NCBI GenBank assembly: GCA_032162605.1
Contig: JAVROT010000088.1
Coordinates: 1,144 to 65,143, forward strand
Direction: 5' to 3'
DNA length: 64,000 nt
DNA from: Mycobacterium sp.
GTDB lineage: Bacteria; Actinomycetota; Actinomycetes; Mycobacteriales; Mycobacteriaceae
A program made the position numbers and the translations under genes. Of this stretch, positions 9,365-32,106 are shown one piece after another. Within the stretch, counting starts at the first letter, position 1. Every line of letters starts with the position of its first letter. The notes under the pieces were generated by a model. It was not told where the DNA came from. It was given only the letters and a program-made list of their open reading frames with translations, and searched no databases.

Positions 9365-9400
9365 ATGCCCAAACACACGAGGGAAGCCCAGGCCCGATGA
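9365..9400 (+). CDS. 11-codon upstream ORF (MPKHTREAQAR) overlapping the MFS start in ATGA
   Basis: Its ATG is positionally homologous to the ligase start codon of copy B. Its stop TGA (9398..9400) overlaps the MFS ATG (9397). No SD sequence upstream. Confidence 0.25.
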   Translation: MPKHTREAQAR

Positions 9401-10656
9401 AGAAGCTCATGGCACTGCACCGCAATGTCCGGGTCAGGATCGGGTTGGCGTTCGTCCACAAGTTGATCGACGCGATGATCCTCACCTTCATCGCGATCTA
9501 CCTCGCGGCCAGCGTGGGGATCGCGACCACGGGCGCGTTGATCCTGGTGTTCGCCGTGTTCGCGGTCTTCGGCATGCTGCTCGGCGGTCATCTGTCGGAG
9601 CATTGGGGCCGTCGGCCCGTCCTCATCGTCGGGGACGTCATCGGCACCGCCTTCCTGGTGCTGATGTCCGTGGCCTACTTCGCCGACTGGGGCCCGCTCG
9701 CCGTTTACTTCAGCTACGCCATCGTCAAGTTCGGTACCAACCTCGCGCTCCCCGCCAACGACTCGACCATCATCGATGTCACCCCGCCCGAGGACCGCAA
9801 GTACGTCTATACGGTCAACTACTGGGTGATCAACCTCGCGCTCGGCGGCGGCGCACTGCTCGGCGGCTTCCTCTACGGCTCGCACTTCGGCGCGGTGATC
9901 CTGGGCGGCGCGATCGGCATGGGCTTCGCACTCCTCGTCACCGTGCTGCTGGTCGCTGAGACGAAGCCGGAGGCGACCCCGGCCGCCGCACCCGCCAAGC
10001 TCCGCGGGTGGTCCCAGTTCACCGAGGGATACCGAGTGGTGCTGCACGACTCGACATTCCGCCGGTTGATCATCGTCGCCACCCTGGTGCTGACCCTCGA
10101 AGGGCAGCTGAGCACCTCCATCGGGATCCGGCTGTCGAACGACTTCGGAGTCCAGCACGTGTTCCCCTTCGGCCACGTGGACGGCGTGCAGATGCTCGGC
10201 GTGCTCAAGGCGGTGAACACCGTCCTGGTCGTGCTGCTCGCGCTCCAGATCAACACGCTGCTGCGGCGGCTGCCCGACCGGGTCCGGCTCTATACGGGCA
10301 TCCCCCTGTACGCAGGCGGCTTCGCCGTGCTGGCGATCACCGACACCGCCTGGGTGCTGCTGCTCGCCGCCGTGGTCCTGACCATCGGTGAGCTGATGAA
10401 CACGCCAGTCCAACAGGGGCTGCTAGCGGAGCTCGCGCCGGAGCAGGGCCGCCCCCGGTACATGGCTGCGTACTACCTGCACATCCGGTTTGGTCAGGTC
10501 GTCAACTCGTTGCTGATCAGCCTCAGCGCGGTGCTGAGCACCAAGGGGATGGCCGGGATCTACCTGATCTTCGGCGCCGTGATCCTCGTGCAATACCGGG
10601 CGATCCTGGCCCGCCGCCCGGCGCGTGCCGCCGCCCATGCACCGCTGTCCGTCTGA
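9397..10656 (+). CDS. MFS transporter
   Basis: 419 aa with ~12 predicted hydrophobic helices and an MFS-type loop (GHLSEHWGRRPVL). Confidence 0.85.
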   Translation: MKKLMALHRNVRVRIGLAFVHKLIDAMILTFIAIYLAASVGIATTGALILVFAVFAVFGMLLGGHLSEHWGRRPVLIVGDVIGTAFLVLMSVAYFADWGPLAVYFSYAIVKFGTNLALPANDSTIIDVTPPEDRKYVYTVNYWVINLALGGGALLGGFLYGSHFGAVILGGAIGMGFALLVTVLLVAETKPEATPAAAPAKLRGWSQFTEGYRVVLHDSTFRRLIIVATLVLTLEGQLSTSIGIRLSNDFGVQHVFPFGHVDGVQMLGVLKAVNTVLVVLLALQINTLLRRLPDRVRLYTGIPLYAGGFAVLAITDTAWVLLLAAVVLTIGELMNTPVQQGLLAELAPEQGRPRYMAAYYLHIRFGQVVNSLLISLSAVLSTKGMAGIYLIFGAVILVQYRAILARRPARAAAHAPLSV

Positions 10657-10679
10657 CTTTCCACATCTTGGAGGCAATC

Positions 10680-12023
10680 ATGTCGGCACGTTCGAACCAC
10701 GTCACCGAGGCCTACCTGGCCGAATGCGCGACTCCCAGCAGCCGGCTGCGCCACGCGCTGGCCGAGCTCGATGTGTCGGAGACCATGCGTGCGGCATGGC
10801 CGCGGCTGCTGCCCCGCCCGGTCATGGTCGACGAGGCCGAGTTCCGTGCGTTCGGCCGGGATCTCGTCACCATCTTCGACCTGGTCAGCTCACTCCCGCA
10901 GCGTTGCTTCGACGGGGACTTCGAACGGTTCCGCGCGGCCCTTGGCATCGACGACCGGCGCGGCGCCTGGATGCGCCGGCTGCTCGGCGACGGCCCGCCG
11001 CCGCTATACGGCCGGGCCGATATCTATTACGACGGCTCGTCATTCAAGCTGCTCGAGTTCAACATCGGCAGCGCGCTCGGCGGCCTGGACATGGTCGGCC
11101 CGCTGCCGAAGGCCTACCTGCGGATCCCAGCCGTCGCGGAGTTCGCCGCCGAGCACGGCCTTGGCTACCTGGACACGAGCCGGGACCTGGCCGCGGCGCT
11201 GCGCAACGCAGGTGAAGCCATCGATGCCGGCGAGCCCGTGGTCGCGGTGGTGGAGGGACCCGGCGGGATGGGCGTGTACGGACACCAGCGACGGGCGATC
11301 GCGGAGCTGCTGATCGAGCAGGGCATCGAGTGCCGGGTTGGCGAGATCGGCGACCTGACCTTCAGCGCCGGCAAACCGTACCTTCACGGCACCGGGATCG
11401 ACGTGATAGTGCGCTATTACGGGCTCGAGGAGATGCTCGCGCATCCCGACGGCGAGGCTCTCATGGAGCCGGTCTTCCGGGCCCACGAGAACGGCACCGT
11501 AGTGGTGTGGACGCCGACCAACGTGTTCGGGAACAAGGGCACGCTCGCGATGCTGTCCGAGTTCGCCGAGGACACCTCGGTGTTCTCGGCGCAGGAGCGG
11601 ACGGTCATCGAGCGGGTGCTGCCGTGGAGCCGCATGCTCGGCCGACGCGGCGCGGAATTGGATGAACGGTTCGTCTCCGAGTGCATGCAGCGCCGGGAGC
11701 AGCTGGTGTTCAAGCCAACTGGGCTGTTCGGCGGCGAAGGCGTCTTGATCGGACGGGAGGTGGACCCGCGCACCTGGCGGGAGGCGCTGGCGGCGAGCAC
11801 GCAGACCGGCTGCCTCGTACAGGAGATCGTGCAGCCGAACGTGGAGCCGGTGATCGAACCGCAGACCGGTGCCCGCTCCGAGTGGTACGCGCTGTGGGCC
11901 GCCTTCATGACTCCGGCGGGGCTCGCCGGCGGTGGCGTGCGGGCGGTACCGCCCGGTGGCAGCACCGTCATCACGATGATCAACAACACCCAGGTCCGCA
12001 ACACATGCCTCGTGACCTGCTGA
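10680..12023 (+). CDS. ATP-grasp-fold amide ligase, glutathionylspermidine-synthase-like (putative)
   Basis: GGAGG lies 5 nt upstream of the ATG at 10680. Motifs GRADIYYDGSSFKLLEFNIGSALGG and LVFKPTGLFGGEGVLIG resemble the GspS / circularly permuted ATP-grasp families. Confidence 0.65.
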   Translation: MSARSNHVTEAYLAECATPSSRLRHALAELDVSETMRAAWPRLLPRPVMVDEAEFRAFGRDLVTIFDLVSSLPQRCFDGDFERFRAALGIDDRRGAWMRRLLGDGPPPLYGRADIYYDGSSFKLLEFNIGSALGGLDMVGPLPKAYLRIPAVAEFAAEHGLGYLDTSRDLAAALRNAGEAIDAGEPVVAVVEGPGGMGVYGHQRRAIAELLIEQGIECRVGEIGDLTFSAGKPYLHGTGIDVIVRYYGLEEMLAHPDGEALMEPVFRAHENGTVVVWTPTNVFGNKGTLAMLSEFAEDTSVFSAQERTVIERVLPWSRMLGRRGAELDERFVSECMQRREQLVFKPTGLFGGEGVLIGREVDPRTWREALAASTQTGCLVQEIVQPNVEPVIEPQTGARSEWYALWAAFMTPAGLAGGGVRAVPPGGSTVITMINNTQVRNTCLVTC

Positions 12024-12040: not shown

Positions 12041-12715
12041 ATGACCCGATTCGTCGACCTGACCCACGGCTTCTACGACGGAATGCCGTCCTACCCCGCC
12101 GACTGGTTTCCGAAGTTCGCCAGCGAGCGCACGATGACCCCGGAGACCGACCCTTACGGCACCAAGCGCACGTTCTCCTATCTGCACGTGTTTCCGCACA
12201 ACGGAACGCACATGGAGTACCGGCTGCATTTCTTCCCCGGGGCGGAGGGGATTGACGAGGTGCCGCTGCACACCCTGATCGGCCGCGCCTGCGTCGCCGA
12301 CCTGTCCGACAAGGGCGAGCTGGAACCGGTCACCGGCGAGGACCTTGAGCGGACGCTGCGCCCGGTGTGGCGGGAGGGTGACCGGCTGCTGGTTCGCACC
12401 GACTACCTGCGGAACAACTGGGGCCGCCCCGACTACTGGGACGTGCCGCCCTACCTGACGCCGTCAGCCGCGGAATGGGCCATCGACAACGGCGCCAGCC
12501 TGTTCGGTCTGGACTGCCTCACCGAGCGGCCCGGCGACGCCGAGTCTCCCGTGCACCACGCGCTGCTGGCGGCCGGCATCCCGCTGCTGGAGTACGTCAC
12601 CAACATGCACGAGCTCACCAGGTCGGTCGTTCAGCTCGTTGCGCTGCCCATGAAGGTGGCCGGCGCCGAGGCGGCTCCCACCAGGGTCATCGCCATGGAG
12701 GACACCGATGACTGA
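12041..12715 (+). CDS. cyclase-family protein (kynurenine formamidase-like metal hydrolase)
   Basis: HNGTHMEYRLH motif (compare HxGTHxDxPxH), plus GLDCLTERPGD and VHHALLAAGIPLLEY. Confidence 0.8.
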   Translation: MTRFVDLTHGFYDGMPSYPADWFPKFASERTMTPETDPYGTKRTFSYLHVFPHNGTHMEYRLHFFPGAEGIDEVPLHTLIGRACVADLSDKGELEPVTGEDLERTLRPVWREGDRLLVRTDYLRNNWGRPDYWDVPPYLTPSAAEWAIDNGASLFGLDCLTERPGDAESPVHHALLAAGIPLLEYVTNMHELTRSVVQLVALPMKVAGAEAAPTRVIAMEDTDD

Positions 12716-13889
12716 ATCGGGCCGGCCCGCGGTTGCGCTCGCTTCCGCGACCGATGACGCCGCGGTGCCCGGTGTGTTGCACCGGCTGCTCGCGCTGCTC
12801 GACGAGCCGCTGGCCGGCCTGCGTCCCGGCGCCGAGGTGCTCATCAAGCCGAACATGTTCCAGACCGCCCCTGGATTTCACGTGAGCCCGGCGCTGCTGG
12901 CCGCCATTGCTCGCGCGGTCGCCGAGCACGGGGCCCGGCCGGTGATAGCGGAGCGTACGCATGCCATCTACGAGATCTTGAATGACCACGAGGCCGCCAA
13001 GTACGCTCGCGTGGTCAGCTTCGATGACCTGCCGTTGCGCATCACCAACATTCCGGGCGCGACGTCGCTTCGGGTGCCGATCGCGGTGCCCGAGATGATC
13101 GAAGACTGCGACTACTTCATCGGGGTGCCGCAGCTGCGCACGCACGCGAGCGTCGTCTACTCCAACGCGATGAAGAACCTGGTCGGGTTGTTGCCCGGCT
13201 ACACGACCCGAATCGTGCACATGGCTGGGGTCGACGAGTCCACCGTGGACCTCAACCTGATGCGCCCGCAGGATCTGGTCATCTGCGACGGAACCACGGT
13301 GATCGAGGGCAACTACCCGATGGACGGGCAAGCGCGCTCGGTGGGCTTCCTGGCGGCCAGCCGAAACGCGGTCGCCCTCGACGTCGCGGTCGGCGTGCTG
13401 GCCGGCTTCGACCCGCGCAGCGTCGCCTATCTGCGCGACGCGCACCAGCGCGGGATGGGCCCACTCGCGCTCGAGGACATCGACCTGCGTGGCACGGCGC
13501 TGACGGAGCTCGCCTTCGACATGGTCAAGGCGCCGGTCGAGATCGTTCCGCCGCGTGCCGGTATCCACGTCTACGCCGAGCATGCCTGCCCGGCGTGCAG
13601 TCGGTTCGTGGCCGCGGCCATGCGTGCCCTCGCCGATGAGCTGTGCGCTTGGGACGGAGAGATGACGATCGTCTCCGGTCCGCAGGTGCAGATGCCGCCG
13701 CTGCGCGGTGCGGTGATCCTCGTCGGCAACTGCCTCTACGAGAGCCGCGATCTCGGCATCTTCATCGAGGGTTGCCCACCACGCGCGATCCAGCTCGCCG
13801 CGTTCCGGTACGCGATGGGCAAACCGGTCGGCGACCATGAGCGCACCCAGTTCCGGGTGCCGCCACGGCTGGCGGGTGTGGCGGGATGA
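12708..13889 (+). CDS. DUF362-family protein with LarA-like motif spacing (candidate NPN-dependent enzyme)
   Basis: VLIKPN..., VPQLRTHASVVYSNAMKNLVGLLPGYTTRIVHMAG and ICDGTTVIEGN. The C-terminal third has CPAC...C...NC...GCPP. 8-nt and 4-nt overlaps with the flanking genes. Confidence 0.75.
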   Translation: MTESGRPAVALASATDDAAVPGVLHRLLALLDEPLAGLRPGAEVLIKPNMFQTAPGFHVSPALLAAIARAVAEHGARPVIAERTHAIYEILNDHEAAKYARVVSFDDLPLRITNIPGATSLRVPIAVPEMIEDCDYFIGVPQLRTHASVVYSNAMKNLVGLLPGYTTRIVHMAGVDESTVDLNLMRPQDLVICDGTTVIEGNYPMDGQARSVGFLAASRNAVALDVAVGVLAGFDPRSVAYLRDAHQRGMGPLALEDIDLRGTALTELAFDMVKAPVEIVPPRAGIHVYAEHACPACSRFVAAAMRALADELCAWDGEMTIVSGPQVQMPPLRGAVILVGNCLYESRDLGIFIEGCPPRAIQLAAFRYAMGKPVGDHERTQFRVPPRLAGVAG

Positions 13890-15259
13890 CGATCAGTACG
13901 GTCACCTCGCCCGGTTCGGCGTTGCCCGCCGGATCGCGGCTGTACCGCCATGTCATGCCGCTGGCGACGCCGATGAACCCGGTGGCGGCGGCCGCCGCGT
14001 TGCGTACCGCCGGTCGGCTCATGCTCACCGCCGGATCCGAGGGTCGCAGCGCAACTCTGGCGGTGGGCGAGCTCGCCGTCCTCTCCCATCCGGGGGGTGC
14101 GGGCCACGCGCCGCTGGCCGACGCCGTGGATTTTCTTGCCGCGCTGGATGTTCCAGTGGGCACCCCGCCTGCCGAGACGGCCTGGTACGGCCTGTTGGGC
14201 TATGACGGGGTGCGGGACTTCGAGCGATTGCCCTGCCGTCACCCGGCGACCGATCGGCCGGTGTACGAGTTCTTCCTGCCCGAGACACTGGTCCAGTTCA
14301 CTGACGGGTATGGGCAGGTGATCGGCCGCGGTCCGTCAGCCGCCGCCGCACGCGCCGCGGCCGAGCGGACCGCGAGGAGGTTGGCGGGGCTGACCGTTGC
14401 GCCGCTCGGCGTCGTCGCCGTGGGTGCCGGCCGGTTCGGCGCCAGCTACGAGGAGTACGCCGCCGCGGTCGACCGCGCAAAGCACCACATCCTCGACGGC
14501 GACGTCTTCCAACTCGTGCTGTCCATCGCCTGGACCGCACCGGCCACCGTGGACGGTCTGGCGGTCTTCGAGCGACTGACGGCGATCAATCCGTCCCCAT
14601 ACCACTTCTGGTACGCCGGGCCGCGGTTCGAGGCGGTCGGCGCCTCACCGGAACCGTGCTTGACGCTGCACGACGGCCGGGCGCTCATCCGTCCGCTCGC
14701 CGGAACCCGACCTCGCGGCCACGACGCCCTCGCCGATCTGCGCGCCGAAGCCGACCTGCGCTCGTCGGCCAAGGAACTGGCCGAGCACCGGATGCTCGTC
14801 GATCTCGCGCGCAACGATCTGGGCCGGGTGTGCCGGCCGGGCAGCGTCTCCGTCGAGCGGCTGATGGACGTGGAGCGCTACTCCCACGTGATGCACCTGA
14901 CCTCGGACGTGCACGGCCAGATCCGCGGCGACCTGCGAACCGACGAACTCATCCGGGCAACGTTCCCGGCGGGCACCATGACCGGCACGCCCAAAGTGCG
15001 CGCCATGGAGCTCATCGACGAACTAGAGCCGACCCGGCGCTGGCTGTACTCAGGCGCGGTCGGGTCATTCGGACTGTCCCACGTCGACTTGTACCTGACG
15101 ATTCGCAGCATGGTGCTGTGCGACGGAGAAATTCGCCTGCAGGCGGGAGGTGGCATCGTGCACGACTCCGAGCCGTCGGCCGAGTACGCCGAATGTCTGG
15201 CGAAGCTCGGCTCGAGTGCCCGGGCCCTTGGGATCACGATCAAGGGGGCCGCGGCATGA
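13886..15259 (+). CDS. chorismate-utilising enzyme, component I (anthranilate/aminodeoxychorismate/ADIC synthase family)
   Basis: FQLVLS, NPSPYHFW, RPLAGTRPRG, AEHRMLVDLARNDLGRVC, FPAGTMTGTPKVRAMELIDELE, GGGIVHDSEP. Confidence 0.85.
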   Translation: MTISTVTSPGSALPAGSRLYRHVMPLATPMNPVAAAAALRTAGRLMLTAGSEGRSATLAVGELAVLSHPGGAGHAPLADAVDFLAALDVPVGTPPAETAWYGLLGYDGVRDFERLPCRHPATDRPVYEFFLPETLVQFTDGYGQVIGRGPSAAAARAAAERTARRLAGLTVAPLGVVAVGAGRFGASYEEYAAAVDRAKHHILDGDVFQLVLSIAWTAPATVDGLAVFERLTAINPSPYHFWYAGPRFEAVGASPEPCLTLHDGRALIRPLAGTRPRGHDALADLRAEADLRSSAKELAEHRMLVDLARNDLGRVCRPGSVSVERLMDVERYSHVMHLTSDVHGQIRGDLRTDELIRATFPAGTMTGTPKVRAMELIDELEPTRRWLYSGAVGSFGLSHVDLYLTIRSMVLCDGEIRLQAGGGIVHDSEPSAEYAECLAKLGSSARALGITIKGAAA

Positions 15260-15858
15260 TCTGCGTCATCGACAACTACGACTCGTTCGTATACAACCTC
15301 GTGCAGTACGCGGGAGATCTCGGCGAGGAGTGTGTCGTATACCGCAACGACGAGGTAACCGTCCAACGGGTGGCCGACCTTGCTCCCGACTTGATCCTCA
15401 TCTCGCCGGGTCCCGGTGATCCGGCCGATGCAGGCATCTCCATCAAGCTGATCCAGCGGCTGGGCCACGACTTCCCGATTTTCGGAGTATGTCTCGGCCA
15501 CCAAGCGATCGGCGCCGCGTTCGGCGCCCGGATCCGGCACGCCGCCGCGCCGATGCACGGTAAGTGCTCGGAGATCAGGCACGACGGAATGGGCGTCTTC
15601 GCGGGACTGCGGAACCCGCTGACGGTTGCGCGCTACCACTCCCTGGTGATCGAGGCCGACACGCTGCCGGCCGAACTGGTGGCGACCGCCTGGTCGCGGG
15701 AAGGCGAGATCATGGGGGTTCGGCACCGGACACTGCCGATCGAGGGTGTGCAGTTCCACCCCGAGTCGCTGTTCACCGAACAGGGCGTCGACATCGTCGG
15801 AAATGCGGTGCGTGGCATCCGCAGCCGGCTGGCCGCGGAGGGGGTGGGGGCCGCATGA
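15256..15858 (+). CDS. glutamine amidotransferase, component II (TrpG/PabA-like)
   Basis: MICVIDNYDSFVYNL, GVCLGHQAIG (catalytic Cys), VQFHPES. ATGA overlap with component I. Confidence 0.9.
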   Translation: MICVIDNYDSFVYNLVQYAGDLGEECVVYRNDEVTVQRVADLAPDLILISPGPGDPADAGISIKLIQRLGHDFPIFGVCLGHQAIGAAFGARIRHAAAPMHGKCSEIRHDGMGVFAGLRNPLTVARYHSLVIEADTLPAELVATAWSREGEIMGVRHRTLPIEGVQFHPESLFTEQGVDIVGNAVRGIRSRLAAEGVGAA

Positions 15859-16691
15859 ACGCCGACCGGCTGCTGGCCCGTCTTCGATCACTCGACGGTG
15901 TGGCCGTCGCGTTTTCCGGTGGTGTCGACTCCACCCTGGTGCTGGCCGCAGCGTTGCGGGCGCTGCCGGCGAACCGGGTGCTGGCGGTGATCGCCGACTC
16001 GCCCAGCCTCGCCCGCACCGAACTCGTCGACGCGCGGCACGTTGCCGCCGATCTGGGCGCGGAGCTGGTCGAAGTGCGGGTCGCCGAGCTCGAGATTCCC
16101 GGCTACCGTGCGAATGCGGGCAACCGCTGCTATTTCTGCAAACACACCGTGCTGAGCGCCGTCAGCGAACTCGCGGTCCGGCGGGGTATCGCGCACGTGG
16201 CCACCGGTACGCATGCCGACGACCATCGGGCCGTGCACCGACCCGGTCTGCGTGCCGCCCGTGAACTGCACGTGGTCGAACCACTGGCCGATGCCGGGCT
16301 CGGCAAGCGCGAGATCCGGATGCTGGCGGCCGCGTGGTCGTTGCCCGTCGCCGACAAGCCGGCGACGCCGTGCCTGGCCTCGCGTATCGCGGTGGGAGTA
16401 CCCGTCTCCATCGGTCGGCTTGGCCTGGTGGAGCGCGCCGAGATCGCGGTGCGAGCGCGGCTGGCCGGTGTCGGCGTGCAACCGCGTGATCTCCGAGTTC
16501 GGTTGCTCGGCGATGGATTTGCCATTGAGCTGGACCGGACGACGCACGCCGCGATGGAGATGTTGCCGGGGTTCACTGCCGAGGTTCTCGCTGCTTTGAA
16601 TGGCCTCGGCCTGACCGGCGCCGGACGGGTGGGGACATACCGCTCTCCCACACTCGCGCCTCCCATCGGTGACACCGCGGTCACTTCGTGA
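15855..16691 (+). CDS. larE: LarE-type PP-loop ATP-dependent sulfur transferase
   Basis: AFSGGVDSTL PP-loop. CYFCK plus PCLASR gives three Cys in total. ATGA overlap with the amidotransferase gene. Confidence 0.85.
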   Translation: MNADRLLARLRSLDGVAVAFSGGVDSTLVLAAALRALPANRVLAVIADSPSLARTELVDARHVAADLGAELVEVRVAELEIPGYRANAGNRCYFCKHTVLSAVSELAVRRGIAHVATGTHADDHRAVHRPGLRAARELHVVEPLADAGLGKREIRMLAAAWSLPVADKPATPCLASRIAVGVPVSIGRLGLVERAEIAVRARLAGVGVQPRDLRVRLLGDGFAIELDRTTHAAMEMLPGFTAEVLAALNGLGLTGAGRVGTYRSPTLAPPIGDTAVTS

Positions 16692-16737: not shown

Positions 16738-17436
16738 ATGACCAGGTCCTCAGAGCCCGATGACCGTTGGAAGCCCGACGAGGCGCTGACCGCCTTCGCC
16801 GACCTCGATGTCGACCGTGCAGCCCGACGCGGTTATCCGGAGGCGGTGTACTGCCGGGGCAAGACGGCCGAGCAGGTCCGGCTCATCGCCGGTGCGCTGC
16901 GCGGCCACCGAGCGCGCACGTTGTTCACCCGGGCGAGCCCGGAGCAGGCCGCAGCGATTCTCGGCGAGCTGCCCGACGCCTTCCACGACGCAGCCAGCGG
17001 GCTGCTGGCGTGGCCGCCCGACCCGCCGGATCCGGTCGGTGGGCAGGTCCTCGTCGTGGCTGCGGGCACGGCCGACCATCCCGTCGCGCGGGAGGCCCTG
17101 CTCACCGCCCGGCACCTGGGCCGCAGCGCCGATCTGATCATGGACGTCGGCGTCGCCGGCCTGCACAGAGTGCTGCGGAGGCTTGACGCGCTCCGTTCGG
17201 CCAGGGTGATCGTCGTGGTGGCGGGTATGGACGGAGCACTGCCCGGGGTGGTCGCCGGACTGGTCGCGGCGCCGGTGGTGGCGGTGCCGACGTCGACCGG
17301 GTACGGCGCGGCGTTCGAGGGCCTGGCGCCACTGTTGACGATGCTCAACAGTTGCGCGCCCGGGGTAGCCGTGGTGAACATCGACAACGGTTACGGCGCA
17401 GGCCACCTTGCCGCTCAGATAGCTGCACCATCCTGA
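16738..17436 (+). CDS. larB: LarB-type nickel-pincer cofactor biosynthesis protein (AIR-carboxylase-like NaAD carboxylase/hydrolase)
   Basis: VVAAGTADHPVAREA, VAGLHR, VVAGMDGALPGVVAGL, VVAVPTSTGYG and NIDNGYGAG. The GTG at 16669 is an alternative start. Confidence 0.85.
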   Translation: MTRSSEPDDRWKPDEALTAFADLDVDRAARRGYPEAVYCRGKTAEQVRLIAGALRGHRARTLFTRASPEQAAAILGELPDAFHDAASGLLAWPPDPPDPVGGQVLVVAAGTADHPVAREALLTARHLGRSADLIMDVGVAGLHRVLRRLDALRSARVIVVVAGMDGALPGVVAGLVAAPVVAVPTSTGYGAAFEGLAPLLTMLNSCAPGVAVVNIDNGYGAGHLAAQIAAPS

Positions 17437-18668
17437 TCGCGAGGCTCGCCCGACCATGGCGCGCCGGGACGGAGCATCGCGGCGTCGGCGGCCGCGATCG
17501 CCTCGTCGAGCACCTGCCGCACCGGTAAGTCGCGGGCCCGGGCCACGGCCGCGGCGTCGTCGAACTCCGGGGTTGCGTGCACGATGCGTCCGGCCCGCAC
17601 CGCCACCTTGATCCGCACCTCGCCGCCGCGCAGCGCGACGGCCCGCCAGCCTCGGTCCAGGGCCACGCGGGACACCGGATACTCCCGTACGCCGATCGTC
17701 GAAGTCAACGCAAAGACGTTGTCGCGCAGTTCTGCCCGCTCGGCGTCCCGGGCGAGCACGCATAGCGTGTGCGCTGGCCGACCCTTCTTCATCACGATCG
17801 GCACCAGCCACGCGTCGGCGGCTCCCGACTCGAGCAGTGCGGCCAGCACCGTCGGCCATACCCGCGGATCCAGGTCGTCGACGTTTGTCTCCAGTACCCA
17901 CATGCCGTCGGCCGTCGGCACATCGGCGATGGGAATGCCGAGGGCCACGCGGACCACGTTGGCCCGCCCCGGGACGTCACGCCCACCCGCGCCCACTCCC
18001 ACCGCGGTGATCTCCATCGGTCCAATCGACCCGCACTCGTTTGCCAGTGCACGGATCAGAGCCATGCCGGTAGGCGTGGCGAGCTCGCCCTCGCCACCCG
18101 CGAGGACACGCCAGCCTCTGGCGAGCTCGAGAACCGCGGGTGGTGGCACCGGCAGATCGCCGTGGGCTGAGCCGACCCGCCCGGAGCCCACCGCTACCGG
18201 GCTGGCCGTCACCCGTGTGACAGCGAGCTCGGCCAGCGCGGCGCACACGCCGACGATGTCGGCAATCGAGTCCCACGAACCCACCTCGTGGAAATGCACG
18301 TCATCGGGTGCGACTCCGTGCACCCGCCCCTCCGCGTCGGCAAGCCGTGCGAACGCCGCGAGCGCGGTGGTGCGCACCGCGCTGGGCAGCTCAGCGTCTT
18401 CGAGCATCGAACGGATGCGTGCCCACGAGCGGTGCGGATGATCCTCGGCACGACTCTCGACGTCAATCTTCAACGCGCGCAGGCCGGCTCGGTGCACTGT
18501 GCTCGTTCGTAGTGCGACCTCGCCGGGCACGACGGCGGACACTGCGGATTCGACCCGGTCGAGCGGGGCGCCGGCGTCGATCAATGCGCCCATCAACATG
18601 TCACCCGCGATGCCCGCGGTGGCGTCCACCCACAGGTGCAAGCCCGCACTGTGCCCCATGACCGCCAC
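17415..18668 (-). CDS. larC: LarC-type nickel insertion (cyclometallase) protein
   Basis: GIAGDMLMGALIDAG, FHEVGSWDSIADIVG and PTGMALI. The C-terminal domain carries KKGRPAHTL. It converges on larB with a 22-nt overlap. The ATG at 18659 is an alternative start. Confidence 0.85.
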   Translation of the reverse strand: MAVMGHSAGLHLWVDATAGIAGDMLMGALIDAGAPLDRVESAVSAVVPGEVALRTSTVHRAGLRALKIDVESRAEDHPHRSWARIRSMLEDAELPSAVRTTALAAFARLADAEGRVHGVAPDDVHFHEVGSWDSIADIVGVCAALAELAVTRVTASPVAVGSGRVGSAHGDLPVPPPAVLELARGWRVLAGGEGELATPTGMALIRALANECGSIGPMEITAVGVGAGGRDVPGRANVVRVALGIPIADVPTADGMWVLETNVDDLDPRVWPTVLAALLESGAADAWLVPIVMKKGRPAHTLCVLARDAERAELRDNVFALTSTIGVREYPVSRVALDRGWRAVALRGGEVRIKVAVRAGRIVHATPEFDDAAAVARARDLPVRQVLDEAIAAADAAMLRPGAPWSGEPRDQDGAAI

Positions 18669-18870: not shown

Positions 18871-20544
18871 ATGACCCCGTACACACACAAGACGGTCCTG
18901 ACCCCGGAACTGAGGGCCAAGGTGGCCGCGGACTCCGGCATCGGCGGCGGCAACCTGCTGCACTCGATGCTCGCCATCAACCCGTATCCGGATGAGCCGT
19001 TCATCCACTCGCTGACTCCGGTGCCCTACACCGACGGTGAGACGCGGACCGAGTTCAGCCTCCGCGACCTCGACCACCTGGTCCAGAGCTGGTCGGTGTG
19101 GTACCAGGCGCAAGGCGTGCGGCCGAAAGACCGGGTCGCGATCTTTCTGCCCGACTCCATCGCATATTTCGTGCACTACTCGGCCATCGCCCAGCTCGGC
19201 GCCATCGCCGTGCTCATCAACTGGAAGGCGCCGCGGGAGAGTGCGATCGCGTTGTGCGAGCGGACCGGCGCGATCGGCCTGTACACCGATCTGGAGCGAT
19301 TGGACCGGATCGGGCCCGATCTGGACAAGCTGGCGCTGCGGTGGATCAGGACCATCGAAGAGATGCCGAGTCCGGCTTCGGCGACGCTGAGCGACGAGGC
19401 ACGGTTTAGGCATCATCCCGAGGACCCGGTGGGAATGATGCACTCGTCGGGCACGACGGGCCTGCCCAAGCCGGTCATCCACACCCACCGCACGATTCTG
19501 GAGGGTCCCAAGTTCCGTGCCGTCGACTACAAGGAGGAACCCGACGCACTGATCATGACCGCGCTTCCGCAGTCGCATCAGGGCACCATCTCGTTCACCT
19601 CCTACGCGGTCCTGACCGGACAGCCGTTGCTGGCCTGGCGGGATGTCACCGGCGAGGAGCTGGCGGCGGCCATCCCGGAGCACCAGCCGACGATGGTGAT
19701 GGCCTTCGGCCATGCCTACCCCGAGCTCGCCGCGCTGGAGACTCCTACCGGCGCCCTCGACTCAGTGAACATCTGGGTCTCCATGGGGGATGCCGTGCAC
19801 GAGCGGCACCTGAAGAACGTCCTCGCGCGCCGCTCTGCAGACCTCCCACCAGCTGCCTTCCTCGACCGCCTTGGCACCACCGAGCTGGGATGGGGCGTCT
19901 TGATGCATCCACGCACCCTGGCGACCCAGCGCAACGACCGCTGCGTCGGCCGCTCGGTCGGCTTCGCAGAGGTCGCCATCCTTCGGCCGAACGGCACTCT
20001 CGCCGCACCGTACGAGTGCGGGTTCCTCGGGGCGAAACCACCGTCCATGACCGTGGGGTACTGGGGCAACCAGGAGACCTATTACCGGAGCATCCTCGCC
20101 GGTTACTGGCTGACCGGCGACGTCGCCTTTCGCGACGACGACGGCTACTTCTACCAGGTCGACCGCGCGGTCGACGTGGTGCACACCGCGCAGGGGCCCG
20201 GCTACTCGGTGCAGATGGAGGAGCTGGTCCTCAACGAGGTCGTCGGCGTCGAGGACTGCACGGTCGTCGCCGGCGGATATCGAAACGAGACGGTGGCCGT
20301 CGCCGTGGTGACTGGAGCGGACATCGACCCGGAAAAGGTGCTGTCAGCGGCCAATGATGCGTTGCGCGCGACCGGGAAGCCGGAATTGGCCATGGTCGAG
20401 GTCGCGAACGCCGACGGCGACTTCCCACTCGGCGTCACTGGTAAGTCGCTCAAGCGCTACCTGCGCGAGAAGTACGAGGACCTCGTCGTCTACCTCGGCG
20501 ATCACCAAAGCAAAAACCTCGCCACGAGCCCTGCGCTCGCCTAA
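18871..20544 (+). CDS. ANL-superfamily AMP-forming ligase (CreM-like diazotase candidate or acyl/aryl-CoA ligase)
   Basis: MHSSGTTGLPKPVIHTHRT (A3), GTTELG (A5), GDVAFRDDDGYFYQVDR (A8), GVTGKSLKR (A10 Lys). Confidence 0.85.
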   Translation: MTPYTHKTVLTPELRAKVAADSGIGGGNLLHSMLAINPYPDEPFIHSLTPVPYTDGETRTEFSLRDLDHLVQSWSVWYQAQGVRPKDRVAIFLPDSIAYFVHYSAIAQLGAIAVLINWKAPRESAIALCERTGAIGLYTDLERLDRIGPDLDKLALRWIRTIEEMPSPASATLSDEARFRHHPEDPVGMMHSSGTTGLPKPVIHTHRTILEGPKFRAVDYKEEPDALIMTALPQSHQGTISFTSYAVLTGQPLLAWRDVTGEELAAAIPEHQPTMVMAFGHAYPELAALETPTGALDSVNIWVSMGDAVHERHLKNVLARRSADLPPAAFLDRLGTTELGWGVLMHPRTLATQRNDRCVGRSVGFAEVAILRPNGTLAAPYECGFLGAKPPSMTVGYWGNQETYYRSILAGYWLTGDVAFRDDDGYFYQVDRAVDVVHTAQGPGYSVQMEELVLNEVVGVEDCTVVAGGYRNETVAVAVVTGADIDPEKVLSAANDALRATGKPELAMVEVANADGDFPLGVTGKSLKRYLREKYEDLVVYLGDHQSKNLATSPALA

Positions 20545-20561
20545 TTCGATTGGGAACCGCC

Positions 20562-21596
20562 ATGACTACATCAGACATTCTGCTCGTCTTCGACAAGACC
20601 GTTACCCCCGCCGGCGTCGAGGGATGGATGCGGCACCTGGAATCTGCCAACGCACCCACCGATGTGTACCGGCTCGGCACCACTCACGTCCTGTCGGTAT
20701 CCGATGTGGACCTCATCCACCGGGGGGGGCCGGTGCTTCCCGAGCCCACCCACCAGGTGCTGTGGAACACCGACGTCTGGTTGGGGCGCAGGGAACTGCG
20801 CCCCGGCGGGACAGTGGTTTCCTTCGGCACGACCACGATCGGCGACGGTTCCGTCGCGGTCATCGCCGGACCGTGCGCGGTCGAATCTCCCGAGCAAACG
20901 CACGCCACCGCGGCCTTCGTCGCCGAACACGGCGCCGTCGGCCTGCGGGGTGGCGTCTTCAAACCGCGGACCTCGCCGCATTCCTTCCAGGGCCTGCAGT
21001 GGGACGGCCTTGACCTGCTTGCCGAAGCCGGGGAGCGGACCGGCCTACCCGTCGTCACCGAGGTGGTCGACCCGGAGCACGTCAAGCGGCTGGCCGCGGT
21101 GGTCGACGGGTTCCAGATCGGGGCCAGAAACATGCAGAACTTCGCGCTGCTGACCGCGGTGGGTCAGAGCGGCCTGCCGGTCGTGCTCAAGCGCGGCTTC
21201 GGCTGCACCATGGAGGAAACACTCGCCGCGGCCGAGTATCTGCTGGTCGAGGGCAACGACCAGGTGGTGCTGTGCGAGCGGGGGATCCGCACGTTCGAAC
21301 CGTCGGCGCGCTTCACGCTGGACCTCACCGCGGTCGCGCTGTGGAAACAGCGCACCCACCTGCCGGTGATGGTGGATCCCAGCCATTCCGGTGGCCTGCC
21401 CGAACTCGTGGAACCGCTGTCGCTGGCCGCGGTCGCGGCCGGCGCGGACGCGCTACTGATCGACGTCCACGTTGCGCCGGAGAAGGCGTTGTGCGACGGC
21501 AACCAGGCACTTCGCCCACAACAGTTCGCCGACTTGATGACCCGGCTCGCCCCGATGGTGGCCGGACTCGGCCGCCACATGAGCAGCGGCGGGTAG
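20562..21596 (+). CDS. 3-deoxy-7-phosphoheptulonate (DAHP) synthase, type I-beta, with an N-terminal ferredoxin-like domain
   Basis: VIAGPCAVES, GGVFKPRTSPHSFQG, IGARNMQNF, KRG and VDPSH. About 75 extra N-terminal residues precede the barrel, as in regulated Thermotoga-type enzymes. Confidence 0.85.
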   Translation: MTTSDILLVFDKTVTPAGVEGWMRHLESANAPTDVYRLGTTHVLSVSDVDLIHRGGPVLPEPTHQVLWNTDVWLGRRELRPGGTVVSFGTTTIGDGSVAVIAGPCAVESPEQTHATAAFVAEHGAVGLRGGVFKPRTSPHSFQGLQWDGLDLLAEAGERTGLPVVTEVVDPEHVKRLAAVVDGFQIGARNMQNFALLTAVGQSGLPVVLKRGFGCTMEETLAAAEYLLVEGNDQVVLCERGIRTFEPSARFTLDLTAVALWKQRTHLPVMVDPSHSGGLPELVEPLSLAAVAAGADALLIDVHVAPEKALCDGNQALRPQQFADLMTRLAPMVAGLGRHMSSGG

Positions 21597-21608
21597 GGCA
21601 GTGACCCC

Positions 21609-23594
21609 ATGTCCACTGAGAAGCTACAGCTGGCAATCGTCGGATTCGGCCCACGCGGCTTGTCGGTCGCGGAACGCCTCTGCGCCAACGTCGAGTCGCT
21701 CCTGCCGGACGGTCGGGAACTCGTCATCCACCTCGTCGACCCGTACGTGTTCGAGGGCGGCCAGGTATGGCGAAGCACGCAGGACCAGGCGCTGTTGATG
21801 AACACGGTGGCCTGCCAGGTAACCATGTTCGTCGACGACACCGTCGACTGTGCCGGGCCGGTGGTGAGCGGGCCGAGCCTCTACGAGTGGGCCCGCTCGA
21901 TCGCCCTGATCGGCATCCCGAACGTACCGGAGGCGGTTCGCGCCGAAGCCGCCACGCTCGGGCCGGACGATTATCCGTCTCGGGCGTTCTACGGGAGTTA
22001 CCTGCAGTGGACGCGCGACCGGATCATCTGGTCGGCGCCCCCGGCGGTCAGCTTCATCTCGCACCAGGCGACCGCCGCCGACGTTCGGGATACCGCGCCT
22101 GGTTTGCAGGAAGTCGTACTGGACTCCGGGGAGACCATCGGCAATCTGGACGCCGTGGTGCTCGCGCTCGGTCACATGCCGCATCGTCTCGGCAAGTCCG
22201 AGGCGGCCCTCGGCCAGTTCGCCGACCTGCACGGCCTGCGGTATGTCGCACCGAGCAACCCGGCCGACGTGCCACTGGACGCGATCGGAGCGGGTGAGTT
22301 GGTGATCTTGCGCGGCATGGGCCTCAACTTCTTCGACTACATGGCGCTGTTGACCATCGGTCGTGGTGGCACGTTCACGCGCGAACTCGGCGGCACCCTG
22401 AGCTACCTGCCGTCGGGTCGGGAACCGCGCCTGGTTGCGGGATCACGGCGTGGAGTGCCCTACCAGGCTCGCGGCAAGAATCAGAAGGGGCCGTCCGGCA
22501 GGCACGAGCCGCGGTACCTGACCGCCGAGGTGATCGAGCGGCTGCGAGCCCGCGCCGACGCCGGGGTACCCGCAGGCTTCCGGCGGGACATCTGGCCGAT
22601 GATCGACCAGGAAGTCCGCACGGTGTACTACGCGACGCTGGTGCGGGAGCGTCGCTGCACCTGCGACGCCGAGGAGTTCACCGCCCTGTTCGCCGCGGCG
22701 GAGCGCGCGCTGGTGCCGACCCTCGGAGATCCTCTGGCCATCCAGGAGAGCGACGCCCAGCGCACCGTGCTCAGCAAGTTCGACATCTATCCCGACGAAA
22801 GCTGGGACTGGCGCAAGATCGCGGCGCCGTTCGTCGACGACGATCTCCGCTCGACCCAGAGCTTCCGCAGCTGGCTGCGGTCCTATCTGGACAGTGAAGT
22901 CCGGGAGGCCGGGAAGGGGAACGTGGCCGGTCCGCGCAAGGCCGCCCTGGATGTGCTGCGGGACCTGCGCAACGAGATCCGGTTGCTGGTCGACCACGGT
23001 GGCCTTTCCGGCGACTCCTACCGGGACGAACTGCAGCGTTGGTACATGCCGTTGAACGCCCACCTCTCCATCGGGCCACCGGCCGAACGCATCGAGCAGT
23101 TCGCCGCGCTGGTGGATGCCGGCGTGCTCGAGGTCCTCGGCCCGGACCTGCGCGTCGACTGCTCGGACGGACACTTCGTCGCGTACTCCCGAACCTGTCC
23201 CGACCTCACGGTGCGGGCTACCACGCTGATCGAGGCGCGCCTGCCGGAAGTCGACCTGCACCGGACGACAGATCCCCTGCTGCGGACGCTGCTGGACCGG
23301 GGCGAGTGCCAGCCGTACCGCATGCCGATCCGCGGCGGCGGTCAGTACGTGGCAGGTGGTGTCGCGGTCACCCGGCGGCCGTACCGGCTGCTCGACGCTG
23401 CAGATCGCCCGCACGCGCGGCGTTTCATGTTCGGCGTGCCCACCGAGTCGGTGCACTGGGTGACCGCGGCGGGCATCCGTCCCGGCGTCAACTCCGTGAT
23501 CCTCGGTGATGCGGACGCCATCGCCCGGTCCTGCCTGCGACCGCTGCTGCTCGCCGATGATCGCGGCGACCACCGGACCGAGACATCGGCGTGA
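21609..23594 (+). CDS. FAD/NAD(P)-binding protein (CreE/FzmM-like flavin N-oxygenase candidate)
   Basis: 661 aa. N-terminal LAIVGFGPRGLSVAERL dinucleotide-binding motif and a second GxG (ILRGMGLNFFD). The size and layout match the FAD-NAD(P)-binding family found next to fumarase-fold lyases. Confidence 0.7.
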   Translation: MSTEKLQLAIVGFGPRGLSVAERLCANVESLLPDGRELVIHLVDPYVFEGGQVWRSTQDQALLMNTVACQVTMFVDDTVDCAGPVVSGPSLYEWARSIALIGIPNVPEAVRAEAATLGPDDYPSRAFYGSYLQWTRDRIIWSAPPAVSFISHQATAADVRDTAPGLQEVVLDSGETIGNLDAVVLALGHMPHRLGKSEAALGQFADLHGLRYVAPSNPADVPLDAIGAGELVILRGMGLNFFDYMALLTIGRGGTFTRELGGTLSYLPSGREPRLVAGSRRGVPYQARGKNQKGPSGRHEPRYLTAEVIERLRARADAGVPAGFRRDIWPMIDQEVRTVYYATLVRERRCTCDAEEFTALFAAAERALVPTLGDPLAIQESDAQRTVLSKFDIYPDESWDWRKIAAPFVDDDLRSTQSFRSWLRSYLDSEVREAGKGNVAGPRKAALDVLRDLRNEIRLLVDHGGLSGDSYRDELQRWYMPLNAHLSIGPPAERIEQFAALVDAGVLEVLGPDLRVDCSDGHFVAYSRTCPDLTVRATTLIEARLPEVDLHRTTDPLLRTLLDRGECQPYRMPIRGGGQYVAGGVAVTRRPYRLLDAADRPHARRFMFGVPTESVHWVTAAGIRPGVNSVILGDADAIARSCLRPLLLADDRGDHRTETSA

Positions 23595-23667
23595 CCGCCC
23601 GAAGGCGACCGCGAGTGAGGATCGCAGCGAGGGACGAGCGAGGACCGGAGCGAGTGGGAGCGGAGGC

Positions 23668-25065
23668 ATGACTATGGACTATGGAATTCTGGCGCCCGCA
23701 TGGGCGGCGACGGGAGCGGCTGACCTCGTCGACGACAACGCATTGCTGACAGCCATGCTCGCTACGGAAGTCGCCCTGGCCGAGGCGCAGGCCGAGTTGG
23801 GCGTGATTCCGGCCGGCGCAGCGAAGGCGATCAGGGTCGCCGCCGTGCCCGCCGCCATCGACCTTGCAGTGGTGGCTGCGGGAGTGCGGGAGACGGCCAA
23901 CCCCGTCGTATCGTTCGTCGAGCAGCTCACCGCTGCGGTCCGGTCCGTCGACACGTCCGCCGCCGAGTATGTACACCGCGGCAGCACCAGCCAGGACATC
24001 CTGGACACCGCACTGACCCTGCTGTGCGCGGCGACGCTGAACCGAATCGAAAGCGACCTACTGGCGTGCGCCGACAGCCTGGCTGGACACGCCGATCGAC
24101 ATCGCGCGACACCGATGGCCGGGCGCACCCTGACCCAGCACGCCGTGCCCGTCACCTTCGGGCTGAAGGCGGCCACCTGGCTGCATCTGGTGCTCGACGC
24201 CGTGGAGCGGGTGCGCCGGACCCGCGCGGCGCTGCCGGTCTCGCTGGGCGGCGCGGCGGGCACGCTTGCCGCATACCACCAGTACGCGGTCGACACCGGC
24301 GATCCGGTTGACGCGACGCTGCGCTTGCCCGAGTTGGTGGCCCGTCGCCTTGGGCTGGCCGAGCCGACCCTTCCCTGGCACGGCATTCGCACGCCCCTGG
24401 CCGACGTTGCTGCGAGCTTGATGGTCACCACCGGAGCGCTCGGCAAGCTGGCCGCCGACGTCCTGGTGCTCACCCGGACCGAGATCGGGGAGGTCACCGA
24501 GGAACCGGCGCCGGGACGGGGCGCGTCCTCGGCCATGCCGCAGAAGCACAACCCGGTGTTCTCGACGCTCGTCGCGACCGCGGCCCGCCAGCTGCCACCG
24601 ATCGCCCTCGTGCTGTTCGGTTCCATGGCCGTGGAGGACGAGCGGTCTTCGGGTGGGTGGCATGCCGAGTGGCAACCTCTGCGGGAGTGCCTGCGCATCG
24701 GTGCCGGTGCCGCCGCCAATGCCGCTCACCTCGCGGCATCGCTTCGGGTCTCACCCGAGGCGATGGCGGCGAACCTGCGGCTGACCCGTGGCGCCATCGT
24801 CTCCGAGCGCGTCAACGTGGTTCTGGCGCCGTTGCTCGGCAAGGCCAAGGCCAAACAACTGCTGACCGAGGTGACCGCGGCGGCCGAGCGGGACGGTGCC
24901 GACGTCGCCGACCTGCTCGCGGTCGCGCTTGAGGAGGCCGGAGTAGCTGTCCCCAACGTGCCGGGACTGTTCGATCCGTCCGGCTACACCGGGGTGTCCG
25001 GTCCGCTGGTCGACCGGGCGCTCCAGCGTTTCGACGATGTCTTGAAGGAGATCTCCCATGGCTGA
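23668..25065 (+). CDS. fumarase/aspartase-superfamily lyase (CreD-like nitrosuccinate lyase candidate; PcaB/PurB-like)
   Basis: GSTSQDILDT, GRTLTQHAVPVTFG and the signature GASSAMPQKHNP. GGAGG lies just upstream of the ATG at 23668. Confidence 0.8.
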   Translation: MTMDYGILAPAWAATGAADLVDDNALLTAMLATEVALAEAQAELGVIPAGAAKAIRVAAVPAAIDLAVVAAGVRETANPVVSFVEQLTAAVRSVDTSAAEYVHRGSTSQDILDTALTLLCAATLNRIESDLLACADSLAGHADRHRATPMAGRTLTQHAVPVTFGLKAATWLHLVLDAVERVRRTRAALPVSLGGAAGTLAAYHQYAVDTGDPVDATLRLPELVARRLGLAEPTLPWHGIRTPLADVAASLMVTTGALGKLAADVLVLTRTEIGEVTEEPAPGRGASSAMPQKHNPVFSTLVATAARQLPPIALVLFGSMAVEDERSSGGWHAEWQPLRECLRIGAGAAANAAHLAASLRVSPEAMAANLRLTRGAIVSERVNVVLAPLLGKAKAKQLLTEVTAAAERDGADVADLLAVALEEAGVAVPNVPGLFDPSGYTGVSGPLVDRALQRFDDVLKEISHG

Positions 25066-26198: not shown

Positions 26199-26201
26199 TC
26201 C

Positions 26202-26810: not shown

Positions 26811-26828
26811 CAGAACGGACGTGTGCAC

Positions 26829-31247: not shown

Positions 31248-31354
31248 GGAAACCTCGTTCCAGGTCACCTAGATCGTAGGAGCCAGGGCCGCCCGGCATC
31301 GGGGAAATCGTCGTGATCAGGCGTGGTCCGCTAACTACCCAATAGGCTATCCAC

Positions 31355-31978: not shown

Positions 31979-32077
31979 GCGCACTCATGATGACGTTCAT
32001 TGAGGAGTCGCGCAGCGGGCTACTCGCGCATTGCCTGCGTGGGTTCTCACTGAATGTGGTGTGGTGGTGACGAGTTG

Positions 32078-32106
32078 AGCCCCCTGTCAGGATTGAACTG
32101 ACGACC
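32078..32106 (-). other. tRNA 3'-end-like remnant (T-arm plus acceptor strand)
   Basis: The minus strand reads GTCAG-TTCAATC-CTGAC-AGGGGGC-T: a 5-bp T-stem with G53/C61, a TTCRANY loop, a 7-nt acceptor strand and a discriminator. No matching anticodon, D-arm or 5' acceptor strand lies upstream. Confidence 0.35.

Follow-up and report, generated by a model that had tools for sequence, protein, structure and literature searches.

A 64,000-nucleotide stretch of a Mycobacterium sp. contig (JAVROT010000088.1), referred to below as the window, contains at 12708-13889 an open reading frame (ORF) for a 393-residue protein of the DUF362 family, lying in one gene cluster with larB, larE and larC, the genes for making nickel-pincer nucleotide (NPN), a cofactor known from LarA. 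We propose that this protein is a candidate NPN-dependent enzyme served by the LarB, LarE and LarC proteins of its own cluster, and we give this reading a probability of roughly 55%. Two arguments carry it: the protein is the sole LarA homologue in the cluster and has a lysine at the tether position and a histidine at the nickel-ligand position, which argues that the NPN is made for it, and the repeated recruitment of lar genes in different arrangements around its relatives would be hard to explain otherwise. A sequence-only reading of this DNA had drawn the comparison with LarA by eye; the LarA fragments that it quoted proved exact against PDB entries 5HUQ, 6C1W and 8EZF, D72, H108, H174, K184 and H200 had been numbered correctly, and the ORF and the quoted motifs, including those with cysteines, are present in the DNA. 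Homology between the two families is in itself not new, since Pfam clan CL0471 already holds both DUF362 and LarA_N and DUF362 has been used as the outgroup of a LarA tree (PMC11770544). The literature that we searched held no link of DUF362, PF04015, COG2006 or Npun_F2552 to NPN and no description of this type of cluster.

Homology to LarA and the putative cofactor site

In Pfam, PF04015 was the sole model to match the protein at E ≤ 0.01 (residues 44-227, 113 bits against a gathering threshold of 24), no LarA model matched, and a LarA hidden Markov model (HMM) built here gave no match to the ORF at E ≤ 10, so that the protein is not a member of the Lar_N (PF09861) and LarA_C (PF21113) families. 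In the opposite direction, the Pfam DUF362 HMM matched residues 82-245 of L. plantarum LarA with an E of 8e-5, and it matched Loigolactobacillus LarA with 26 bits (gathering threshold 24). Alignment of 63 diverse DUF362 sequences against 9 diverse LarA sequences by hhalign gave a probability of 63% and an E of 7e-5 over 167 columns, and a local hhalign run that set 140 DUF362 representatives against a LarA set of 129 gave an E of 3.8e-4. Full-length LarA sequences came from plasmid records. Diverse alignments were needed, as hhalign with a shallow alignment of the subfamily (Neff 2.1) gave no match to the 9 LarA sequences.

When modelled by AlphaFold2 from the alignment of its orthologues (pLDDT 87 and pTM 0.85, with residues 166-174 and the C-terminus poor), the protein has the two-domain alpha/beta fold of LarA by Foldseek. 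All 18 matches to the PDB at E ≤ 1e-3 were LarA-family structures with a probability of 1.00 (9EIA, 6D6Z, 7S91, 2YJG, 8EZF/H, 9Q3J/K, 6C1W and 5HUQ), and the next match stood at E 0.012. Both the profile-profile comparison and the structure search had been proposed as checks by the sequence-only reading, and both came out in its favour. The protein thus has its fold class and its Pfam clan in common with LarA (PDB 5HUQ, 6C1W, 9EIA, 6D6Z, 9Q3J), and from profiles and model together the DUF362 subfamily to which it belongs is predicted to be a deep branch, or distant relative, of the LarA superfamily.

In three independent alignments, namely that of the DUF362 HMM with LarA and the two hhalign runs, H146 was paired with LarA H174, K156 with K184 and H171 with H200. 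By alignment, therefore, the position of the Lys184-type tether is taken by K156 and that of the His200-type nickel ligand by H171, the latter in a loop of low model confidence, and the protein is predicted to keep the His174-type acid/base residue as H146. The lysine and the nickel-ligating histidine are among the few residues kept across LarA homologues (PMC12611868). The residues stand in the motifs KPN47-49, AERTH85, LRTH146...AMK156NLVG...RIVH171MAG, CPAC294/297, NC342 and GC356PP, and the spacings given earlier hold: 36 residues from N49 to H85 and from D72 to H108, 10 from H146 to K156 and from H174 to K184, and 15 from K156 to H171 versus 16 in LarA. Among 30 orthologues of 53-87% identity, H146, K156 and H171 are invariant, and residues specific to the subfamily are invariant as well (E82-R83-T84, Q52, R144, T166-T167, N202-Y203 and C134).

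Global or secondary hhalign solutions also paired residues 394-424 of LarA (…VIPDG) with residues 19-47 of the DUF362 protein (…LIKPN), with E values of 0.007-0.13 that are not significant. We did not accept this pairing of a LarA C-terminus with a DUF362 N-terminus as homology and treated it as spurious or repeat-like similarity; it may reflect an internal repeat between two Rossmann-like halves.

Besides the histidines and the lysine, the protein has a set of cysteines with no counterpart in LarA. C134, C294, C297 and C356 are invariant in the subfamily, and the C-terminal Cys4 site formed by C294, C297, C356 and either C342 or C134 probably holds an Fe-S cluster, judging from the motif. Two hints bear on its type: one relative weakly matched PF01058 (E 1.4e-4), suggestive of a [4Fe-4S] site of the NuoB/hydrogenase-small-subunit type for CxxC...C...GCPP, and the broad DUF362 profile picked up the [NiFe]-hydrogenase small subunit 1E3D at a non-significant E of 1.5. 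C342 is replaced by Ala or Ser in the Streptomyces clade, though it is kept in 138 of 140 DUF362 representatives, and together with the invariance of C134 this pattern may mark a swap of the fourth cluster ligand.

The lar genes and their recruitment into the cluster

The three lar genes of the window are predicted to be intact and bona fide and to form a full set for NPN biosynthesis, each product scoring above its NCBIfam cut-offs: LarE with 238 bits for TIGR00268 (cut-off 150), LarB with 270 bits for NF033503 (cut-off 175), and LarC with 199 bits for TIGR00299 (cut-off 90) and 134 bits for NF052512 (cut-off 50). In LarE the P-loop reads SGGVDS, and there is a CxxC...C motif such as PMC9283937 defines for LarE of the catalytic [4Fe-4S] type. 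As the sequence-only reading had stated, the window holds no canonical larA; the best tblastn match had an E of 0.046, and the LarA HMM gave E > 4 on all six-frame ORFs. No LarA homologue other than DUF362 was found in the window or in 77 genome loci, the window ORFs scanned included neither an aldo-keto reductase (AKR) nor an ornithine cyclodeaminase, and family scans of these ORFs revealed no other cluster gene resembling a known NPN user.

The DUF362 gene is the fourth in a plus-strand series that starts with a major facilitator superfamily (MFS) transporter gene, and it overlaps both neighbours, as had been claimed. The stop of the upstream gene for a cyclase-like hydrolase (12715) overlaps the DUF362 start by 8 nt, and an ATGA overlap joins DUF362 to a TrpE/PabB-like gene. 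With start/stop overlaps of 4-8 nt at 12708, 13886, 15256 and 15855, the chain runs cyclase-DUF362-trpE-trpG-larE, so that the DUF362 protein is translationally coupled to the cyclase-like hydrolase and the TrpE/TrpG-like pair. The earlier description of coupling to larE-larB(-larC) was therefore right about the overlaps but omitted the intervening trpE/trpG-like genes, and larC lies on the minus strand, convergent with larB and overlapping its 3' end. The three lar genes are thus predicted to be co-transcribed with this chain or lie adjacent to it. An alternative GTG start of larB at 16669 would overlap larE.

To follow this linkage across genomes, we took one genome per species, which yielded 77 loci, mapped the window proteins onto them by tblastn and scored lar genes within 10-kb flanks. 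Sixty-five loci with at least 40% identity were taken as the subfamily, the remaining 12 being distant, generic DUF362. In 64 of the 65, the gene directly upstream of DUF362 is the cyclase-like one; a trpE(-trpG)-like gene is near DUF362 in most of them, and at least one lar gene was found in 32, which represent at least 11 genera and show four or more arrangements. In the first arrangement, that of the window and of loci in Mycobacterium, Pseudonocardia and Geodermatophilus, trpG-larE-larB is followed by a convergent larC. The second has larC-larB-larE-trpE'-luxE-like-DAHP synthase divergent from cyclase-DUF362 and occurs in Streptomyces, Kitasatospora, Actinacidiphila, Actinoplanes and Nonomuraea, and also on a 2.35-Mb Streptomyces plasmid (L169); the sole plasmid copy of the cluster belongs to Streptomyces sp. 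NBC_01450, where tblastn shows the order LarC-LarB-LarE. In S. thermovulgaris the order is larB-larC-cyclase-DUF362, with the two lar genes immediately upstream of the cyclase-like gene, and in Plantactinospora, Micromonospora and Kitasatospora sp. MAA4 the lar genes lie 5-10 kb downstream. On this comparison, lar genes appear to have been recruited into the cluster family at least four separate times. Two cyclase-DUF362 clusters (L058, L061) are present on the chromosome of Streptomyces sp. NBC_01190, one copy having larE, larB and larC nearby and the other having larE alone detected within 10 kb.

Alternative explanations and the proposed reaction

A number of observations weigh against an NPN role, the first group of them concerning the site itself. 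Position 85 is H, R, A, K, Q or G across the 30 orthologues, with R in an 87%-identical protein, and is mostly A, G or S across 140 DUF362 representatives; H85 paired with LarA H108 in two alignments, and position 85 was unaligned in the 63-against-9 hhalign run. Since the position is variable, its histidine is best read as a coincidence of one sequence, so that the second catalytic histidine, of the His108 type, appears to have no conserved equivalent. The claimed match of four LarA residues, and the conservation check proposed for it, therefore hold for H146, K156 and H171, which are aligned and invariant, but not for H85. Likewise, the equation of the N of the first motif with the D of LarA failed in the profile alignments, which put the invariant N49 opposite S71, one off D72, and LarA Arg75 falls opposite a gap beside Q52 with no aligned equivalent. 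As Asp72 binds the cofactor ribose and Arg or Lys at position 75 the cofactor phosphate in LarA (PMC12611868), two further cofactor contacts are not clearly kept, judging by these alignments. TM-scores to LarA structures were 0.32-0.41, values of about 0.4 being what the model of a remote two-domain relative would be expected to give; the loop with H171 (166-174) has a pLDDT below 50; and searches of PDB sequences found no LarA with single sequences or the subfamily profile and nothing significant with the broad DUF362 profile.

The second group of adverse points concerns distribution. Within 10 kb, 33 of the 65 subfamily loci have no lar gene, and these include about 26 Amycolatopsis loci as well as Catenulispora, Tengunoibacter and Brevibacillus (for example Amycolatopsis sp. 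cg9 CP166850.1 and Brevibacillus ruminantium CP098755.1). Generic DUF362 genes have no such linkage at all: neither larB, larC nor larE was found in 92 loci, comprising 80 metagenome loci (557 kb, scanned for generic DUF362 with an 18-sequence alignment) and the 12 distant genome loci, and the same lar queries detected Lactiplantibacillus LarB and Rhodovastum LarC as positive controls. Neighbours of the generic genes were heterogeneous, with no conserved partner and no cyclase or trpE linkage. A profile search of 1.84 billion representatives returned 6,758 DUF362 clusters at E ≤ 1e-3, chiefly from archaea and anaerobic bacteria, and conservation counted in 140 diverse full-length representatives was high for K47-P48-N49 (130-136/140), E/D82 (138/140), H146 (128/140), K156 (139/140), N157 (136/140), G160 (138/140), H171 (139/140), D194 (134/140) and C294/C297/C342/C356 (138-139/140). 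The His/Lys/His pocket and the Cys4 site thus appear to mark DUF362 as a whole, beyond the lar-linked subgroup: generic DUF362/COG2006 (PF04015, 'found in iron-sulfur proteins') has the same signature of KPN, H-x9-KN-x2-G, His and CxxC...C...GCPP in a full-length match. With the motif family-wide and generic loci free of lar genes, the motif alone cannot be read as an NPN site; what sets the lar-linked subfamily apart from generic DUF362 is its own invariant residues and its fixed cyclase partner.

These observations would also fit a DUF362 protein that is an Fe-S or metal enzyme with a His/Lys/His pocket not meant for NPN, the lar genes then serving another client, which could be a different cluster enzyme or a protein encoded elsewhere, for instance a LarA homologue, a cyclodeaminase or an aldo-keto reductase dependent on NPN. 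The family-wide signature, the 0/92 count, the half of orthologous clusters devoid of lar genes within 10 kb and the loss of several LarA cofactor contacts (His108, Asp72, Arg75) all speak for it, and so do the CBM9/dockerin modules fused to some DUF362 domains, from which secretion of those proteins follows (PMC5742341). We nevertheless hold this explanation to be unlikely. It leaves at least four separate lar recruitments into the cluster unexplained, no other cluster gene is like a known NPN user, and DUF362 is the sole LarA homologue, with exactly the tether lysine and the nickel-ligating histidine.

A very improbable alternative is that a nickel-binding building block of the cluster product, a pyridine-dicarboxylate or dithiocarboxylate, would come from the lar genes, with DUF362 unrelated to these genes or processing the block. 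Pyridine dithiocarboxylates do occur as bacterial metabolites, and the cluster is of the secondary-metabolite type with ligases able to attach an acid. However, the Amycolatopsis cluster has the same gene set minus lar (CreE/CreD, PabC-like, ligases, MFS, cyclase, DUF362 and TrpE/G), so that the core product seems not to need such a block, a contrast in favour of a cofactor role for the lar genes, and the presence of a complete LarC nickel insertase points to finished NPN.

We also considered that DUF362 binds the pincer cofactor non-catalytically, as a carrier, for storage or delivery, or by non-covalent binding of a variant such as NPAD, the adenine-dinucleotide form, for another pathway enzyme. 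Tight coupling to the cyclase-like partner would permit hand-over, and the second catalytic histidine is not conserved; we know of no NPN chaperone, and the invariance of H146, E82-R83-T84, Q52, R144 and N202-Y203 is what a substrate pocket would show. Other systems provide examples of NPN bound non-covalently and of the NPAD variant (PMC9283937; PMC13524815), but single-His LarA homologues are active enzymes (PMC12611868), and on balance such a role is decidedly improbable. These homologues, LarA_Sp and LarA_Bw, resemble the DUF362 protein in having the lysine, the nickel-ligating histidine and one catalytic histidine; they differ from it in being true Lar_N family members and in keeping the His108 type with His174 replaced by Asn, the DUF362 protein showing the opposite, with the His174 type kept and position 108 variable.

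Returning to the NPN-enzyme reading, we propose that LarB, the [4Fe-4S]-type LarE and LarC of the cluster would turn nicotinic acid adenine dinucleotide (NaAD) into NPN, which the DUF362 protein would take up at K156/H171. The holo-protein would then carry out hydride transfer on an intermediate derived from amino-deoxy(iso)chorismate, the presumed product of the TrpE/G pair, together with the partner hydrolase. The likeliest chemistry would be transient oxidation of a secondary carbon bearing OH or NH2, by which the intermediate could be epimerised, isomerised or changed in its net redox state. In the DUF362 proteins of the nearest outgroup (P0199, P0200, P0203, P0210 and P0213), a xylose-isomerase-like TIM barrel (PF01261) is attached at the C-terminus, a fusion that hints at sugar, cyclitol or keto-acid chemistry and would fit hydroxy/keto carbons.

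Compared with LarA, whose lar operon likewise places the enzyme gene beside larB, larE and larC, and whose tether lysine, nickel histidine and His174-type residue align with conserved DUF362 residues, the protein differs as follows: it lacks a conserved His108 or Arg75 equivalent and has Asn for Asp72; it has the extra Cys4 site, probably Fe-S; and its context is a chorismate-derived secondary-metabolite cluster rather than 2-hydroxyacid metabolism. Pincer cofactors are known to be used by the LarA superfamily, by ornithine cyclodeaminases that depend on NPAD and by the NphT family with its AKR fold (PMC13524815), so that only two non-LarA users have been reported, the ornithine cyclodeaminase in 2025 (Desguin 2025, cited in PMC13524815) and the aldo-keto reductase in 2026 (PMC13524815). 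NphT and the cyclodeaminase were found in a like manner, by adjacency to larB/C/E without larA and with a His/Lys pair as the proposed holder of the cofactor (PMC13524815), but the folds of NphT (a TIM barrel) and of the cyclodeaminase are unrelated to LarA, whereas DUF362 is a LarA homologue. The NphT discovery pipeline centred on proteins without LarA homology (PMC13524815), and so was not aimed at a deep LarA relative like DUF362.

The identity of the non-LarA NPN users is an explicit open question in the field. If correct, our reading would add a third non-LarA user family, a deep LarA relative with an extra, probably Fe-S, site; it would bring nickel-pincer chemistry into secondary-metabolite biosynthesis, for the first time to our knowledge; and it would offer a first way into the function of the large, functionally uncharacterised DUF362 family, with a compact gene set (cyclase-DUF362 plus larEBC) that is testable with published co-expression systems. 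A wider version, in which the His/Lys/His pocket together with the Cys4 site forms the ancestral DUF362 cofactor site and DUF362 proteins are generally enzymes that depend on NPN, or on some pyridinium cofactor related to it, and link hydride transfer with an Fe-S cluster, seems to us improbable; were it true, DUF362 would explain part of the many genomes with larB/C/E but no larA. Such genomes make up about 15% of those analysed (PMC11796402).

The NCBIfam model NF052623, 'Npun_F2552 family', weakly matched the DUF362 protein (70 bits, cut-off 500). Npun_F2552 is presumably a Nostoc punctiforme locus tag and the family possibly cyanobacterial. Cyanobacteria have been reported with larB/C/E but no LarA (PMC11796402), which makes this match noteworthy for co-occurrence.

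The surrounding biosynthetic cluster

The features of the region are collected in Table 1. The window has a high GC content of about 67%, and its nearest relatives are uncultured Actinomycetota metagenome-assembled genomes (94% identity) and Mycobacterium/Mycolicibacterium (91-93% protein identity).

Table 1. Genes of the cluster and codons of the DUF362 residues discussed, in window positions
Feature	Position	Strand	Basis or remark
MFS transporter	9397-10656	+	Pfam; upstream end of cluster
Glutathionylspermidine-synthase-like ATP-grasp protein	10668-12023	+	Pfam; upstream end of cluster
Cyclase / arylformamidase-like metal-dependent hydrolase (PF04199)	12041-12715	+	Pfam E 2e-26
DUF362 (PF04015) protein, candidate NPN client	12708-13889	+	393 aa, ATG start; Pfam E 2.3e-32
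DUF362 N49 codon	12852-12854	+	
DUF362 H85 codon	12960-12962	+	
DUF362 C134 codon	13107-13109	+	
DUF362 H146 codon	13143-13145	+	
DUF362 K156 codon	13173-13175	+	
DUF362 H171 codon	13218-13220	+	
DUF362 C294 codon	13587-13589	+	
DUF362 C297 codon	13596-13598	+	
DUF362 C342 codon	13731-13733	+	
DUF362 C356 codon	13773-13775	+	
Chorismate-utilising TrpE/PabB-like component I	13886-15259	+	Pfam Chorismate_bind E 5e-84
TrpG/PabA-like glutamine amidotransferase, component II	15256-15858	+	Pfam GATase E 1.5e-55
LarE, ATP-dependent sulfur transferase of NPN synthesis	15855-16691	+	TIGR00268
LarB, NaAD carboxylase/hydrolase of NPN synthesis	16738-17436	+	NF033503
LarC, full-length nickel-inserting cyclometallase (LarC1 + LarC2)	17415-18668	-	Pfam Ni_insertion E 1.5e-130
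AvaA6/CreM-like ATP-dependent diazotase candidate	18871-20544	+	NCBIfam best match, PDB 9xb8 homology
DAHP synthase	20550-21596	+	
CreE-like FAD/NAD(P) N-oxygenase	21609-23594	+	PF13454
Nitrosuccinate-lyase-like (CreD-like) protein	23506-25065	+	NCBIfam
Class-IV aminotransferase / PabC-like protein	from 25058	+	Pfam
Rv2466c-like DsbA-fold reductase	26202-26810	+	Pfam
L-amino-acid-ligase ATP-grasp enzyme	26823-28085	+	Pfam
L-amino-acid-ligase ATP-grasp enzyme	28082-29314	+	Pfam

From its gene content, the region from 9.4 to 29.3 kb is predicted to be a biosynthetic cluster for a chorismate-derived product, for which diazotisation or an N-N bond, ligation to amino acids and export are probable. 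The transporter and ATP-grasp genes at its upstream end are syntenic in Mycobacterium-like and Amycolatopsis loci. PDB relatives of the cyclase-like protein are kynurenine formamidase, isatin hydrolase and metal-dependent hydrolases. The TrpE/PabB-like protein matched both TrpE and PabB models of NCBIfam, every one under its equivalog cut-off, and in the PDB aminodeoxychorismate (ADC) synthase and anthranilate synthase scored about equally, both near 1e-63; its TrpG-like partner had 231 bits for TIGR00566 (cut-off 121).

Downstream of larC, the genes at 18871-25065 suggest an aspartate-nitrosuccinate nitrite pathway feeding the diazotisation of an aromatic amine. The first of them encodes an AMP-binding enzyme whose best NCBIfam match is the AvaA6 3-aminoavenalumate diazotase, with 337 bits for NF058622, below the cut-off of 975. 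Elsewhere among these genes, NF006421 reached 388 bits (cut-off 335) and NF052556 534 bits (below its cut-off of 650), so that the nitrite and diazotase assignments (NF052556, NF058622) are best matches pointing that way, under equivalog cut-offs. The diazotase candidate also matched PDB 9xb8 with an E of 3e-215, 719 bits and about 60% identity as judged by eye from the printed alignment; 9xb8/9xbs are deposited as 'Fatty-acid-CoA ligase FadD', and an enzyme related to the candidate has thus apparently already been crystallised, the searched literature holding no paper for these entries. Streptomyces and Brevibacillus variants of the cluster have LuxE-like and LuxC/aldehyde-dehydrogenase-like genes instead of the nitrite/diazotase genes, and retain DAHP synthase, cyclase, DUF362, trpE and ligases.

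The PabC-like, Rv2466c-like and two ligase genes (25058-29314) recur in the Amycolatopsis cluster. In the window, the class-IV aminotransferase/PabC-like ORF extends to 26569, so that about 370 nt of it overlap the Rv2466c-like gene, which is read in another frame; their Amycolatopsis counterparts abut, sharing 4 nt. The long overlap could stem from a stop codon that comes late, from a frameshift or from a miscalled gene end.

Beyond the ligase genes, the GC content falls to 0.63-0.65 at 30000-40000, as compared with 0.67-0.71 in the cluster region, and a Ser/Thr kinase gene on the minus strand (29280-31268) precedes the drop, which may be where the cluster or an island ends. A family-5 solute-binding protein on the minus strand (32546-34402), about 14 kb from larC, is weakly NikA-like (61 bits, cut-off 393) and could belong to a peptide or nickel importer. 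Further downstream, a redox gene group at 50944-61503, with two cytochrome P450s, several short-chain dehydrogenases/reductases, a zinc alcohol dehydrogenase, an aldehyde dehydrogenase and a 3-hydroxyisobutyrate-dehydrogenase-like gene, appears unrelated to the DUF362 and lar genes.

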